A DNA stretch of 64,000 nucleotides from an uncultured Verrucomicrobiae bacterium (lineage in GTDB: Bacteria; Verrucomicrobiota; Verrucomicrobiia; Chthoniobacterales; UBA10450). This document shows positions 4,390-53,982 of the stretch, piece after piece. Numbering within the stretch: position 1 is the first letter of the stretch; every line of letters begins with the position of its first letter. The stretch is from the NCBI GenBank assembly GCA_963815455.1, contig CAWFGO010000002.1, forward strand, positions 192,001 to 256,000, read 5' to 3'. The translations under genes and the position numbers were made by a program. The notes below the pieces were generated by a model. That model saw only the letters and a list, made by a program, of their open reading frames with translations, had not been told where the DNA came from and did not search any database.

Positions 4390-4480
4390 ACCACGAATAG
4401 ACACGAATGAACACGAATTCGTGAGACAGTCTCGCCTATAACCTTTTCTTTATTCGTGTCGATTCGTGTTTATTAGTGGT
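4390..4480. mobile_element. Empty hairpin element with 29-bp inverted arms of ACACGAAT units (MITE-like partner of the GxxExxY cassette)
   Basis: ACCACGAATAGACACGAATGAACACGAAT ... ATTCGTGTCGATTCGTGTTTATTAGTGGT; same arm design as 33065-33093 and 33465-33493. Confidence 0.7.
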
Positions 4481-15333: not shown

Positions 15334-15427
15334 TGTCATCCCGACCATGGTCGAGGGATCCCGTGGCGTTACCTTCACGTTCCAAAACGGGATTCTTCGA
15401 CTCCGCTTCGCTTCGCTCAGAATGACA
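15334..15427. repeat. GTCAT-terminated palindromic element, copy 2
   Basis: TGTCATCCCGAC..GTCGAGGGATCCC....GGGATTCTTCGACT..CGCTCAGAATGACA between rplV and rpsC. Confidence 0.85.
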
Positions 15428-15442
15428 GTGCATATTCAAAAT

Positions 15443-19716: not shown

Positions 19717-19811
19717 TGTCATCCCGAGCAACGTCGAGGGATCCCGTTGCGGTACCTTTAAGGTAGCTTTCCGGGATTCTTCGACTTCGCTTCGCTTCGC
19801 TCAGAATGACA
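19717..19811. repeat. GTCAT-terminated palindromic element, copy 3
   Basis: TGTCATCCCGAGC..GTCGAGGGATCCC....GGGATTCTTCGACT..CGCTCAGAATGACA between rpsJ and rplC. Confidence 0.85.
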
Positions 19812-19825
19812 GTGCTAATATTTCT

Positions 19826-22352: not shown

Positions 22353-22357
22353 CTCTC

Positions 22358-22484
22358 TGTCATTCTGAGCGGAGCGAAGCGGAGTCGAAGAATCCCGCGA
22401 TGGCACTGTCGGACCCACAACCGTCGTTCGCGTGTTCCAACACCAATTGCGGATCCTTCGCCGTCTGCGCGGCTCAGGATGACA
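22358..22484. repeat. GTCAT-terminated palindromic element, copy 4
   Basis: TGTCATTCTGAGCG..GAGTCGAAGAATCCC....GGATCCTTCG..GCTCAGGATGACA between rpsG and fusA. Confidence 0.85.
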
Positions 22485-29919: not shown

Positions 29920-30050
29920 CATTTTTGGAGTCGCCAGCCAGGGTCAGTCCTCACTTTTGACATTTTTGGGCAAGCCTCGTCGACATGCGCTGTGTCAATA
30001 GTGAGGACTGACCCCGCTCCGTCCCCCTGCGCTGTGTCAATAGTGAGGAC
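29888..30050. repeat. Palindromic repeat array, left part (GGGTCAGTCCTCACTTTTGACA x2, then inverted TGTCAATAGTGAGGACTGACCCC copies)
   Basis: Tandem GTCGCCAGCCAGGGTCAGTCCTCACTTTTGACATTTTTG units facing CGCTGTGTCAATAGTGAGGACTGACCCCGCTCCGTCCCC units. Confidence 0.85.
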
Positions 30051-30080
30051 TGGGATTGCCCTGATTGTACGGACAGTTGG

Positions 30081-30923
30081 TTAAGGGTAATTTTGGTTTA
30101 GTTGGGATTCAAAGTTGATTGGGGTCTGGTAGGCAAGACTGGAATGAAGTCTGAGGCGGTTATAGAAGGTTTCGATATAGTCGAAGATGGCGGTACGAGC
30201 TTGGGCGATCGTGGCGAAGCGGTGATGATAGACCAGTTCGTATTTGAGGCTGCTGAAGAAGCTTTCGATAAAGGCATTGTCGTAACAGTTTCCTTTTCGG
30301 CTCATCGAAGCGGTCAGGCCATGTTGGCTGAGCAGTTCGCGGTAAGCGGTGCTGGCGAACTGGGCTCCGCGATCGGAGTGGACAATTAGATTTTTTGAGT
30401 AGCGTCGTTGATCGATAGCCATGCGCAGGGCGGCGCTGGTCAGAGCGGTATCGAGAAGCCGATCCATGGCCCAGCCGATGACGCGCCGGCTAAAGATGTC
30501 CAGAACGGCGACGAGGTATAACCAGCCTTGAGCGGTAAGCACGCAGGTCACGTCAGTGGCCCAGACTTGGTTAGGGCGTCGTACGACTAGAGCACGCAGC
30601 CGGTTTGGAGCGATTGGTCCACCGTGACGACTGTCTGTTGTGAAGTGGCGATACTTCGAGCGTTGCCGGGCAAAGATTCGCTCCTTGCGCATGAGCCGGG
30701 CGATGCGATTACGCCTTCCCGGGCAGCCCAACACCTGGGCCAGCCGCGGACTGCCGTAAGTCTGACGACTGCGGGCAAACTCCTCCCGGATGCGTTGACG
30801 CAACCGAATGTTCTCCAGTTGGCGTGGTCCAGGGCTACGCCGCCGCCGGATCCAGGCGTAATAGCCACTACGCGAAACCAAAAGCGCTTCACACAACCAT
30901 GCGATCTTGTAGGAGCCGCTCAT
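30081..30923 (-). CDS. IS3 transposase OrfB (DDE integrase core)
   Basis: YGSPR, WATDVT, DIFSRRVIGW, HSDRGAQF, GNCYDNAFIESFF, YNRLRLHSSL. Confidence 0.95.
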   Translation of the reverse strand: MSGSYKIAWLCEALLVSRSGYYAWIRRRRSPGPRQLENIRLRQRIREEFARSRQTYGSPRLAQVLGCPGRRNRIARLMRKERIFARQRSKYRHFTTDSRHGGPIAPNRLRALVVRRPNQVWATDVTCVLTAQGWLYLVAVLDIFSRRVIGWAMDRLLDTALTSAALRMAIDQRRYSKNLIVHSDRGAQFASTAYRELLSQHGLTASMSRKGNCYDNAFIESFFSSLKYELVYHHRFATIAQARTAIFDYIETFYNRLRLHSSLAYQTPINFESQLNQNYP

Positions 30924-31267
30924 CTGTTCGATTCGGGCATACCTCTCGGCGGCGCTTCGGAGAGGATGCCCAGCGATTTTTTTAAGACTTCACGTTGTTC
31001 TAGAAGTTTTGCGTTCTCGGCGCGCAACCGCCGGATCTCCGCTTCAAGGTCTTCTACGCTGCGTTTAGACTTCGACTCGCTCGGACAGGAGTTCGACTGA
31101 CGTTTGGGCCGCGCCCAACGGTAGAGCAGCGGTGCTCTTATGCCCAGCTCGGCCGCTACTTTGGCCGCACTGCGACCACTGTTACGCCATAACTCCAGCG
31201 CTTCCTTCTTATACTCCTCCGTGTATCTGGCTCTGTCGCGAGCCGGCTTACTTAACTGTGATTTCAT
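30920..31267 (-). CDS. IS3 transposase OrfA (HTH)
   Basis: YTEEYKKEALEL..VAAELGI..LYRW, leucine-zipper-like EIRRLRAENAKL, EVLKKS. Confidence 0.93.
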   Translation of the reverse strand: MKSQLSKPARDRARYTEEYKKEALELWRNSGRSAAKVAAELGIRAPLLYRWARPKRQSNSCPSESKSKRSVEDLEAEIRRLRAENAKLLEQREVLKKSLGILSEAPPRGMPESNR

Positions 31268-31328
31268 GTGGGCTCCTCTCGGGTTTTGACCCCTAGCCCA
31301 CTGTCCGTCAAACTAATGCAACCCTACT

Positions 31329-31410
31329 CTGACCCCGCTCCGTCCCCCATAGTGAGGACTGACCCCGCTCCGTCCCCCTCAATAGTGAGGACTGACCCCG
31401 CTCCGTCCCC
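31329..31410. repeat. Palindromic repeat array, right part ([ATAGTGAGGA]CTGACCCCGCTCCGTCCCC x3)
   Basis: Continuation of the unit interrupted by the IS at 30050. Confidence 0.85.
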
Positions 31411-31411
31411 C

Positions 31412-31609
31412 TGGATGCGAAGCAGAAGTGAAGGCCGTGCTGGAAACGCCGGAGGAAATTCGGCGTAGCAAAAGAGATGCAAACGTCTATCTTTTCTACC
31501 GCAGCCGACGCAACCAGCGTTGGGTCTGCGCCGTAAGTAAACAGGAGGGCCGCACCGGCTTTCTCATTACGGCGTATGTCACCGACGCCATTAAAGAAGG
31601 CGAAAAAAT

Positions 31610-31622
<13 letters not shown>
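31412..31622 (+). pseudogene. N-terminally truncated DUF4258/RelE-like putative toxin
   Basis: VLETPEEIRRSKRDANVYLFY...GFLITAYVTDAIKEGEKIW; overlaps the downstream DUF2283-like gene; 5' end abuts the repeat array. Confidence 0.55.
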
Positions 31623-33064
<1,442 letters not shown>

Positions 33065-33075
<11 letters not shown>

Positions 33076-33493
33076 ACACGAATGGACACGAATGATAAGA
33101 AGCTGTTGTTCAAGGAAGAGGTCTTTCAAATCGTCGGCTGCGCAATTGAAGTTCTGAACACGCTGGGTCATGGCATCGTCGAGAAGCCCTACGAGAACGC
33201 GCTAGTAGTCGAGTTCGGCCTGCGACAAATTCCTTTTCGTCAGCAACCTTCGTTAATGTCCTCTACAAGGGTCAGCCCGTTGGGTTGTTCATCCCCGATC
33301 TGATCGCTTTCGATAGCGTCGTGGTAGATACAAAAGTGATCGACCGAATCACCGATCACGAACGCGGATTAATGTTGAATTACCTTCGGATTACGAAACT
33401 CCGCGTCGGGGTAATCTTGAATTTCAAGCATCCTAAATTGGAGTGGGAGCGGATCGTTCTGTAGATTCGTGTCCATTAGTGTTCATTCGTGGT
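33065..33493. mobile_element. GxxExxY cassette bounded by 29-bp terminal inverted repeats
   Basis: Left ACCACGAATGAACACGAATGGACACGAAT (33065-33093); rc of right arm (33465-33493) ACCACGAATGAACACTAATGGACACGAAT; 28/29 match. Confidence 0.7.
33082..33464 (+). CDS. GxxExxY protein (PD-(D/E)XK nuclease superfamily), frameshift near 33252
   Basis: LGHGIVEKPYENAL (GxxExxY), then YKGQPVGLFIPDLIAFDSVVVDTK...MLNYLRITKLRVGVILNF in the next frame. Confidence 0.88.
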
Positions 33494-34250
33494 TACTCCG
33501 CGGCGGCGACTTTTCGGACTGGTTTGGGCAAAAAGTCGTTACACTTTGATAATCACTTTCCTGGCCCACGCTTCGCCCGATTCCTTGCTGTAGTGAACTC
33601 CGTCACCGCCGGTTTTTCCAGGCACGTATTGCGTCAGACGCCGTGAGTTAATCACCAGATCGCCGCGCGGAATCTCCTGCCAAATCAATCGATAAATCCG
33701 GCCTTGTACTTTCGAGAACCTGGATGAATCCGGCGGGCCGATCCAAATGATCCTGCGTCGGGCGCCGCGGTGCGCAGTGCCGACGAATCGATTAATGAAT
33801 GAACGAATCTGATCGTCGGACAGCGATCGGTCCATCCAGTTCGTGCCCTGTTGCACAATCACGATCGTCGGTTTGTACCGGGCCAGGAGCGATTCCAGTT
33901 TCGGCGTGCCGGTCGGCGGCGGCGCTTTGCCGTTACGAAAATCTTTATAGACATCCGTCGTCGGAGTTCGCTCGCGATAGCCGCACTTGGTATGAAAAAC
34001 CGGCTCCCCTCGTAGCCAGTTCTCCGGCGAAGAACCGCAGGAAGCGAAAAAGGCCACATTCCCGCGGCCGTACATATTTTCGAGATGTCGATCCAACGTT
34101 TCACCAAACCCGCCGACCGAGAGCGAGTCTCCGATCGATCAAGATTCTTGGCGGGGTCGGTATCGGCGGCCTTCTTCCGGCTGGCTGCGAGTACCGAGGG
34201 AGCCAATCACAATCAGAACCGCCAGAGCTAAGTGAAATGGGGCGAAGCAT
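33493..34250 (-). CDS. SGNH/GDSL hydrolase-like exported protein (frameshifted)
   Basis: IGDSLSVGG, QQGTNW, WIGPPD, GGDGVHY motifs. Confidence 0.75.
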
Positions 34251-49023: not shown

Positions 49024-49959
49024 GCTCCTGCTCGCTTGCCGCGCCGTAGCTTTGCGAAGGCGGGTGCTCGTAATCGATCCAACAGCTGCGCGGCAAGACG
49101 TTCTCCCTGATCGCGCTCACCTTCCACTTCGCCTTCGTCCGGCGCTGCCGAATCATCCCGGAAAAACTGCGCCCGCATTTTCATCACGCCGCTGTCGATC
49201 CTGGCCAGAACACCAACCGGCGCGTTGCAGTCCACGTTAAGCAATCGCAGAAACGCGCGTTCCGCTCGGAGGCAAAGCAATGTGTCCCGGTCGTTCACAG
49301 AATCGACAATGGCTCTCACTTTTTCATCATCGGCGCGAATTTGAATCGCGATGATCCCCTGCCCGCCGGCCGGCAAAAAAATTTCCTGCGGCAGAACATC
49401 CGCACCCAAATTCCCCGACCAAAGGCTCAGCCGCTCGAGCCCGGCTCGGGCCAGCACGATTGCGTCCCAATTATTTTCCGCCAATTTGCGCAAACGCGTC
49501 GGCACATTGCCGCGAAGATCGACAACTGTTAAGATCGGGCCGTTTCCAGAGCAATTGACGTTTCCGTCGCACGCTGCTGGTGGCAATGGTCGCGCCCTTT
49601 GGAAGGCCGGCAAAACCGGATGGGTGCTTCGAAATCAGGACGTCGTTGGATGGCCCACGCGGCAGGACCGCGGCGATCTCCGCGCCCGGATTTGTTTCGC
49701 TCGGCAAATCCTTGGCGCTGTGGACCGCCAGATCGACATCTCCGGCCAGCAACGCTCGCTCGATTTCCGCAGTGAACAATCCTTTCCACCCCGCGCGATG
49801 ATCGACAATCTTCTTTTGATCGCCCGTTGTCTTGATGATTCGCGTCTCGATCTTCAGTTCAGACCGTTGCGCCTGCAGCGCATCGGCGACCAGTTTACTT
49901 TGCCGAAGCGCCAGTTCGCTTCCGCGCGTGCCGAGCACAATCTTTAATGCGGCGGTCAT
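49020..49959 (-). CDS. hemC: Hydroxymethylbilane synthase (frameshift near 49530)
   Basis: GTRGSELALRQ, KGLFTAEIE, AVHSAKDLP, TSSVRR; then DLRGNVPTRL, LPAGGQG, AERAFL, DCNAPVG. Confidence 0.93.
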
Positions 49960-49973
49960 AGACCGCCGCTACA
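49949..49973. repeat. GTAG-type REP palindrome forming the hemA stop and hemC start
   Basis: Minus strand TGTAGCGGCGGTCTATGACCGCCGC; near-identical copy at 50811-50835. Confidence 0.85.
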
Positions 49974-51057
49974 GCTCGGAAGCACGCAGCGAACTTTCTT
50001 CCACCGATGGATGTTCCATGCCCGATGTTCGACCAAGTCCAGCCGAGACCTTTTCGCCAAAGTCGGCAACGTGTGTGACGATAATTTCCTCGGCGGCAGC
50101 CATCTGCTGCCGGCGCAACGCGAGCGATTGCTCGGCGATCGATTGCAACGAATCGATATCGTAAAGATAGACGCCTCCCATTTCGTTCACATCGGGATCG
50201 ACATCGCGCGGCACGGCGATGTCGATGATAAAAAGCGGCCGGTCCAGGCGGTCGCGCAACATCGGCGCAAGATTTTCAGAACTGAGCAACGGCGTCTCGG
50301 ACGATGTCGACGCGATCATGATGTCGATCTCGCGGCATTGCTCCGGCCATTGATCGAAGGAGACCACTCGCCCGCCCACCAGCCGGACCAAGTCTTCGGC
50401 CCGTTCGATGGAACGATTGCTCACGCGCAGATCGGTCACGCCCCGCGAAATTAGCGCCCGCGCCGTGCGTTCACTCGTTTCACCGGCGCCGAGCACGAGA
50501 ACTTTGCGATCGGTCAATTCGCCAAAAATTCGCTGAGCCAGATCGACTGCGACAGATCCGACCGAAACCAAGCCGCGTGCGATCTCGGTGTGAGTGCGCA
50601 CCTGTTTCGCCACCCGGAACGCGCGCTGGAACAACCGATGCAGATACGAGCCGGCTGCGCCGGAAGTGCGGGCCGATTCATAGGCCTTCTTGGCCTGGCC
50701 GAGAATCTCGCTCTCGCCCACGACCATCGAATCGAGCCCCGAAACGACACGAAAAAGATGCTGCACGCATCTGTTGCCTTCGTACCGGTAAAATGGAGGA
50801 GCTTCTGCGCTGTAGCGGCGGTCTATGACCGTCGCACTCTTATCGATTTCCCGCACCAAACACTGCGCAATTTCATCTGTCGATACCCGTTTCTCCGAGG
50901 CGCCGTAAACTTCCACACGATTGCAGGTAGCCAGCAACAGTGCCTCCACGCAACCGGCATCGCGCAAAGTGGATTCGCTCCGGGCGTGACCAGCGAAGCG
51001 CTCGCGAGTCTCGACCGTGGCGGTGTGATGGCTCAGCCCGACGCAGAAGATATTCAT
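49969..51057 (-). CDS. hemA: Glutamyl-tRNA reductase
   Basis: GLSHHTA, TCNRVE, GLDSMVVGESEILGQ, GAGET, DIAVPRDVD. Confidence 0.96.
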   Translation of the reverse strand: MNIFCVGLSHHTATVETRERFAGHARSESTLRDAGCVEALLLATCNRVEVYGASEKRVSTDEIAQCLVREIDKSATVIDRRYSAEAPPFYRYEGNRCVQHLFRVVSGLDSMVVGESEILGQAKKAYESARTSGAAGSYLHRLFQRAFRVAKQVRTHTEIARGLVSVGSVAVDLAQRIFGELTDRKVLVLGAGETSERTARALISRGVTDLRVSNRSIERAEDLVRLVGGRVVSFDQWPEQCREIDIMIASTSSETPLLSSENLAPMLRDRLDRPLFIIDIAVPRDVDPDVNEMGGVYLYDIDSLQSIAEQSLALRRQQMAAAEEIIVTHVADFGEKVSAGLGRTSGMEHPSVEESSLRASEL

Positions 51058-53877: not shown

Positions 53878-53959
53878 GTCATTCCGAGCGGAAGTCGAGG
53901 AATCCCGTTGCAAACCAAGCCGCCGTTCAACGGGATCCTTCGACTTCGCTCAGGATGAC
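53878..53959. repeat. GTCAT-terminated palindromic element, copy 5
   Basis: GTCATTCCGAGCG..GTCGAGGAATCCCG....CGGGATCCTTCGACTTCGCTCAGGATGAC between queF and queC. Confidence 0.85.
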
Positions 53960-53982
53960 CAGGTAAGATTGCGTCACATCAA

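Follow-up and report, generated by a model that had tools for sequence, protein, structure and literature searches.

GxxExxY genes lie between inverted repeats, which we call arms, and the type of arm tracks the tree of the enclosed protein and not that of the host. We regard the resulting cassette as probably a slow-moving selfish element of gene junctions, and we put at a little over one in two (about 0.55) the probability that the GxxExxY protein recognises and nicks its own arms, with host repair occasionally copying the cassette to a new junction. The copy that serves as our reference lies behind tgt in the window, by which we mean the whole 64,000-nucleotide stretch of DNA from an uncultured Verrucomicrobiae bacterium that was analysed. 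The initial annotation of this DNA had described near-perfect inverted arms of three units of about 10 bp each; when they were re-measured, the left arm matched the reverse complement of the right at 28 of 29 bases, and each arm consisted of three 10-bp units with the core ACAC.AAT. The features concerned are as follows.

31894..33075, plus strand: tgt (host gene), with several frame breaks as assembled; its final codons are replaced by the left arm.
33065..33093, plus strand: left arm, three 10-bp units; provides the tgt stop (33073-33075) and the GxxExxY start (33082).
33082..33464, plus strand: GxxExxY gene (TIGR04256 / PF13366 PDDEXK_3), split, with one base missing near 33253.
33465..33493, minus strand: right arm, a 28/29 inverted match to the left arm; then TA, part of the convergent gene's stop.
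33493..34096, minus strand: convergent host gene, no family assigned; true stop at 33493-33495.
4390..4480, no strand: gene-less arm pair, arms matching at 25/29; TA on both sides; between a response regulator and a 77-aa gene.

The tgt stop (TGA) and the GxxExxY start (ATG) both fall inside the left arm, as had been claimed, and the right arm does begin directly after the GxxExxY stop (TAG, 33462-33464). That the right arm ends on the TAA of the convergent gene also holds, after allowing for one indel: the convergent reading frame as assembled meets an earlier stop, at 33539, and is one base short relative to the same-genus genome G001, whose protein has identical terminal residues at the 33493-33495 stop. 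The tgt proteins of relatives have about seven more residues at the end, and the open frames of tgt in relatives vary widely in length. Three-unit arms number 34 in this 3.6-Mb genome (90% complete) against 1-3 in three order-4 Markov simulations; an artefact or a chance repeat is ruled out by the simulations together with flank controls in the order and in other phyla. The genome has two GxxExxY genes, both with arms, the second standing after nuoK and using a different unit, CACGAAA; this and the other gene names that we give to junctions, such as nuoF-nuoG and metK-ahcY, are presumed from the translations. Where CCAC-type arm pairs lie 250-2500 bp apart in this genome, the two GxxExxY genes are the only ones enclosed. 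Just upstream of tgt, at 31428-31819, are two small overlapping genes, the second a DUF2283 gene, which we take to have the look of a toxin-antitoxin pair, and at 30048-31329 is an IS3-like element (HTH_Tnp_1 plus rve integrase) with imperfect terminal inverted repeats and short direct repeats nearby.

The frame of the GxxExxY gene is interrupted by a single gap relative to four intact relatives. This is probably an assembly error, because the base is gone from a run of T, other genes of the same assembly are frame-broken too (tgt, the convergent gene and the second GxxExxY gene), and a short-read contig of 151 letters spans 150 positions (33119-33268) with no mismatches and one extra letter somewhere within; on these grounds a true pseudogene need not be invoked. 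Both halves of the gene score above the TIGR04256 cut-off (42.7 and 53.8 bits against 35), and PF13366 is also above its own. PMC3424549 lists GxxExxY as a very large family of unknown function. Among 40 family members D67 and K79 are invariant and E28 nearly so, and E28, D67, D77 and K79 are all retained in the clade of the window copy, which is under purifying selection (dN/dS 0.03-0.09 in the 17 unsaturated of 55 pairs, the other 38 being saturated). The predicted model of an intact relative (L070; pLDDT 96.8) has a confident PD-(D/E)XK core that is closest to Cas4, lambda exonuclease and Hjc, with Cas4 SSO0001 the best match (Z 8.2, rmsd 3.1, 98 residues aligned). Fold matches at Z 8.2 or less and Foldseek E values of 0.003 or worse fix the superfamily and not the substrate. 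A sequence search of the PDB returned T7 endonuclease I alone, at an E value of 0.73 that makes it a lead only, and the ESM Atlas matches were GxxExxY clusters exclusively. The enclosed protein is not of the GIY-YIG type (cd10448), the gene between these arms is a PF13366 gene and not an HUH Y1 transposase, and a search of this genome (90% complete) found no DUF559 gene.

Arms are a general property of the family. In the order, PF13366 is matched in 29 of 41 genomes and in none of the remaining 12; 69 loci yielded 62 full-length genes (loci L018 and L022 come from the unpublished genomes G008 and G003), and an inverted flank match, counted at a score of 28 or more, was present at 53 of the 62 against 4 of 400 control ORFs. 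A cross-phylum sample, which represents one large branch of the family, was built from 80 GTDB loci, 5 of them dropped as partial or short-flanked, and has 76 rows including one duplicate of L136; arms pass in 68 of these rows, compared with 2 of 66 when flanks are shifted and 70 of 449 when partners are swapped. Armed genes occur in 15 named phyla, and their units are clade-specific and the same on left and right (CACGAAT, CACAGAG, CGCAGAT, CAGGAA, ACAGAAT and others). In all these phyla the gene has its cognate repeat to the left and to the right, as in an Ssn/NTS-type arrangement. The initial annotation had named three observations that would count against it, and for CCAC-type arms none of the three was seen: the relatives have the arms, the sites vary, and unrelated genes are not flanked equally often.

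The association between arm and protein was followed on a quick tree of 129 proteins, restricted to those whose arm passes and can be classified. On this tree there are 8 changes of arm class against a shuffled mean of 48 (six states), and host phylum changes 37 times against a shuffled mean of 60 (16 states). Several arm classes are also found together in single genomes. These tree and genome counts overstate the case, since an arm is passed on along with its gene and related carriers do not count as independent; a host-defined arm would nevertheless follow the host. We found no description of an arm-bounded GxxExxY cassette in a search of the openly available main texts. Within this scope nothing on GxxExxY, PDDEXK_3 or TIGR04256 gave an account of arms, a GxxExxY passage being concerned with Cas4 and RTs, and six arm motifs used as queries returned chance primer matches only.

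The cassette also comes and goes at its sites. Comparison of the tgt 3' end in relatives, a check proposed at the outset, established that presence and absence are real: GxxExxY is lacking there in 29 of 29 other genomes (one of them, G015, unpublished), including G001, which has the same convergent neighbour. At four of the 29 loci a gene-less pair, built of another type of arm, stands directly at the tgt stop. Two public runs yielded contigs in which tgt is linked to the convergent gene over 33056/33059-33494; the match resumes at precisely 33494 after 40 or 194 letters of other sequence, and the cassette therefore replaced the last tgt codons. The clade of the window copy (72% identity or more) is present in 17 of 151 family genomes and at 78 metagenome loci, with both arms at 70 of the 74 that have enough flank. 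Its sites fall into 18 flank groups, 10 of which have three or more members and two of whose singletons probably belong to larger groups; the tgt site is occupied by the window copy alone. At one site (L111) the gene occurs in opposite orientations, and the cdsA-dxr junction has different clades in different genomes. Relatives often share one flank only, as in L209 and L210 and in the flank groups, and arm ends coincide with synteny breakpoints. Extra arms were found in 14 of 17 clade carriers against 43 of 134 other genomes; 20 of the 134, where no cognate gene was detected, have five or more arms, and the five that were checked have other GxxExxY genes. Coding sequences from different flank groups are at best 91-93% identical, with synonymous sites mostly saturated, and no very recent hop was seen among these groups. 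Given this figure and the conservation of the protein, movement is real but slow.

These observations can be assembled into a proposed mechanism. The consensus of 52 arms starts TA-ACCAC and repeats ACAC.AAT in direct tandem, and it does not include a GTAG-tagged palindromic REP unit; variation is found at position 6 and in the 2-bp linker and hardly touches the cores of the units, a result that depends on the pattern used for the search. We take the three phased units as putative binding sites of the encoded protein, as is suggested by an arm class that follows the protein and by the several classes that share a host. Expression would be borrowed from the host operon, the start codon lying in the arm a few bases past the upstream stop, and pairing of the arms in the transcript may damp it. 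The enzyme would nick or break the DNA at the arms, probably in a single-stranded or hairpin form as with SsnA and RAYT, and repair by recombination through homology in the arms or in neighbouring genes would account for the replacements, the diverged duplications and the occurrence of either orientation at one site. Insertions would survive mainly at stop codons because the arm starts TA-ACCAC and carries further stops; clade cassettes usually stand at a stop codon, and the arm provides the upstream stop in 35 of 78. Decay of the gene would afterwards leave arm pairs and single arms. More tentatively, and here we are inclined to doubt, the cassette could represent a mobile element of a new class, powered by a single 125-residue PD-(D/E)XK enzyme that reads three helically phased 10-bp sites and cuts short-spacer arm pairs extruded as a hairpin or cruciform. 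The break would be repaired from a gene-filled copy via arm homology, and the cassette would in effect home, in one orientation or the other, to empty shells of its own. If this were true, the imperfect pairing of surviving empties would reflect escape from cutting, and the family would be a source of hundreds of compact nucleases, each clade with a target repeat of its own that can be read.

The layout of the cassette is not confined to nuclease genes. Four-helix-bundle (IVP, PF05635) genes have inverted arms in 14 of 16 copies in this genome (L336-L351), made of 7-bp (sometimes 6- or 8-bp) tandem units with each copy using a unit of its own, and in four genomes where GxxExxY has no match, inverted arms are also present at 4 of 6 copies. 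IVP genes are not nucleases by family annotation, and our literature search found no description of their arms. Because these non-nuclease genes share the arm-gene-arm arrangement, layout alone is no proof that the passenger is the catalyst. Arms of both kinds might be moved by shared machinery of the host or acting in trans, such as the Y1/HUH transposases that are matched 16 times in this genome, leaving GxxExxY at most an arm binder or a protein with an unrelated job; the persistence of arms without a cognate gene would fit this. We consider it unlikely, since the arm class tracks the GxxExxY clade across phyla with several classes in one genome, the unit length is specific to the family (9-10 bp against 7 bp) and the catalytic residues are conserved under strong selection. 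Several other repeats were seen in the same DNA. Inside tgt, at 32425-32505, is a stretch of tandem 7-bp units like those of the four-helix-bundle arms. Palindromic repeats stand beside 3 of 7 GIY-YIG and 6 of 9 Y1 genes in this genome; in the window, GTCAT-tagged palindromes that resemble an Ssn-related motif are found at 1043-1119, 15334-15431, 19717-19815, 22357-22406 and 53928-53974, the genome as a whole having seven short GIY-YIG genes. GTAG-type palindromes at 49948-49983 and 50801-50836 lie inside a reading frame, presumably that of a hemA-like gene, and are apparently translated in frame.

A host role can also be proposed: an Ssn-like system might have been domesticated, with arm-bearing DNA cut for a host purpose (control of recombination or of incoming DNA), the arms selected by the host and relocation incidental. 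The purifying selection suits this, as does a long stay at conserved junctions, many clades being loyal to one junction across genera (for example nuoF-nuoG and metK-ahcY); such loyalty fits plain inheritance and counts against the self-acting model. The cassette is chromosomal, with matches in 0 of 50,697 INPHARED phage records, 1 IMG/VR contig and 6 of 72,556 plasmid records, and SsnA modulates transformation in Neisseria (PMC11893778). A patchy distribution (17 of 151 family genomes for the clade, no family match in 12 of 41 relatives) and the many broken or deleted copies make host service improbable in our view.

Loss of the gene leaves arm pairs behind. The gene-less pair reported at 4390-4480 is real and folds with z = -6.0. 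Among 23 syntenic genomes, 14 have a conserved short arm-free spacer at this site, eight (this one included) an arm or remnant, one another arm type and none the gene; the conserved arm-free spacer identifies the pair as a replacement. Its spacer bears a weak likeness to the two ends of the gene (shuffle p 0.045, in a test that the letters of the arms inflate). The 66 paired elements taken from 15 genomes, which are a sample and no full count, include 2 with full genes and 64 that are gene-less or decayed; spacers resemble the ends of the gene at p below 0.05 in 12 of the 64, with the same inflation, and in about six the likeness is plain on inspection. Several gene-less pairs arose from full cassettes by deletion. 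The cleanest case is nuoL-nuoM, a junction filled in G001 and occupied here by two ends of the same gene with the interior deleted. In this nuo operon (G000:C1:132568-136811) a full GxxExxY cassette, a deletion scar and a further arm follow one another from junction to junction. Beyond the right arm of that full cassette, the second of this genome, the terminal 51 bases of nuoK are repeated, 41 of the 51 identical and the changes synonymous only; the rear copy is nearer G001 (39 vs 36) and the front copy nearer the four other genomes tested, which weakly hints at arrival by recombination from another lineage.

The proposal that the filled and empty forms are an autonomous element and its MITE has therefore to be divided. 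The armed gene that is present or absent stands, as do the empties, and dispersed inverted doublets and singlets that match the repeats of the enzyme gene are found. The gene-less pairs are short and non-coding with terminal inverted repeats, but 'MITE' overstates their nature, since at least part of them are scars and they do not form families of near-identical copies in a genome: none of 119 within-genome comparisons of distinct elements (one nested match removed) found a shared spacer, and spacer lengths range from 56 to 317 bp. Two near-identical gene-less elements with different outer flanks in one genome (L213 and L240 in G087), whose spacer is below the length for the sharing test, could reflect genuine copying or an error of binning; they hint that empties themselves are copyable. 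Other repeat families are nested in CACGAAT arm pairs at L249, L239, L278 and L335, making compound hairpins.

The search for target duplication, which the initial annotation had suggested, gave a mixed picture. The dinucleotide TA borders 91 of the 132 ends of paired elements; 49 of 84 clade cassettes have it on both sides, and the cassette at tgt has it at the right end only. This is compatible with TA duplication and also with stop-codon selection. Diverged direct repeats flank 6 of 77 clade cassettes (at two sites; control 0.2%), 2 of 53 at the level of the order and 2 of 67 across phyla, and around gene-less pairs 0 of 60 at score 24. No one constant duplication emerged, and both window sites are replacements. 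It is accordingly a remote prospect that we are dealing with TA-targeting TIR elements (IS630/Tc1-like MITEs) that captured a nuclease gene and whose gene-less pairs are mobile MITEs. The TA borders, the terminal inverted arms and the L213/L240 pair would agree with it, and REPIN spacers also vary (PMC3116915), but spacers are unshared, no transposase was found between arm pairs in this genome, TA also begins the stop codons that tolerate insertion, and arms change wholesale between clades.

Mismatches compatible with G.U pairing on the sense strand are not in excess (105 vs 87, p 0.22; 115 cassettes) and partner arms do not co-vary (85 matches vs 94.5 expected; 50 pairs), an apparent anti-correlation being weak (p(low) 0.005 on 38 non-deduplicated pairs and 0.043 on 50 deduplicated); without partner compensation or G.U bias, phased protein sites suit the arms better than a selected RNA helix. 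Arms do pair in the MFE and centroid structures of 33040-33520 and cassettes fill operon junctions from stop to start, but with no Rfam match at the locus, a convergent gene downstream at the tgt site and the 4390-4480 pair set between divergent genes, we find it scarcely credible that selection maintains them as a stem in the mRNA by which the insert is looped out or excised (cf. 23S rRNA intervening sequences), with upstream stop and downstream start kept together.

The arms provide a candidate substrate, readable from the flanks, for every GxxExxY clade and so make function testable. If the enzyme does act on its arms, as we favour, the PD-(D/E)XK fold would be the third, after HUH (RAYT) and GIY-YIG (Ssn), with a repeat-enzyme-repeat lifestyle; abundant intergenic hairpins in many phyla would be explained, and small sequence-specific nucleases may be supplied. 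The parallel IVP cassettes, with the same layout in the same genome but 7-bp units and a non-nuclease protein, suggest a wider, undescribed ecology of junction-filling cassettes.

Known systems offer partial likenesses. PD-(D/E)XK homing endonucleases such as I-Ssp6803I show presence and absence at conserved sites, clades that are loyal to a site and a cycle of decay. The GxxExxY cassette resembles them in presence/absence, site loyalty and decay, with repair-mediated spread as its inferred route, and differs in being free-standing at junctions, without an intron or intein (no Rfam match), bounded by repeats and, within one clade, located at many unrelated sites. Prokaryotic MITEs, as described in PMC10969869, share with the gene-less pairs a short, non-coding form, terminal inverted repeats and decay from a coding element; the pairs depart from them in having no families of near-identical copies, no fixed target duplication seen at the sites compared and a parent gene that is not a DDE transposase, and it is the copy-family test that places them outside. 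Closer are the RAYT/REP, REPIN, REPtron and TIRtron systems, in which (PMC3116915, PMC3733652, PMC8266576) an enzyme gene also lies between inverted repeats, gene-less doublets and singlets occur, pairing is imperfect, spacers vary and repeat and enzyme co-evolve, TnpA-REP processing its cognate REP (PMC8266576). The GxxExxY cassette, unlike RAYT/REPIN, has neither an HUH/Y1 transposase nor a GTAG tag, is found complete at many sites and has several doublets that are demonstrably deletion scars. The Ssn/NTS system (PMC11893778) likewise has a small single-domain nuclease gene between its own repeats, a dispersed repeat and enzyme-repeat pairs that co-vary, and its authors remark on the IS-like layout of NTS-ssnA-NTS. 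Ssn, however, is a GIY-YIG single-strand nuclease whereas GxxExxY has the PD-(D/E)XK fold; NTS is a hairpin palindrome present in hundreds per genome whereas the GxxExxY arm is non-palindromic, has three 9-10-bp units and occurs 2-45 times per genome; and cutting of the repeat that flanks its own gene is a property of SsnA (PMC11893778) that for GxxExxY is predicted only. The GxxExxY cassette thus works like RAYT/REPIN or Ssn/NTS and is a member of neither, since it fails the enzyme and repeat tests by which each is defined.
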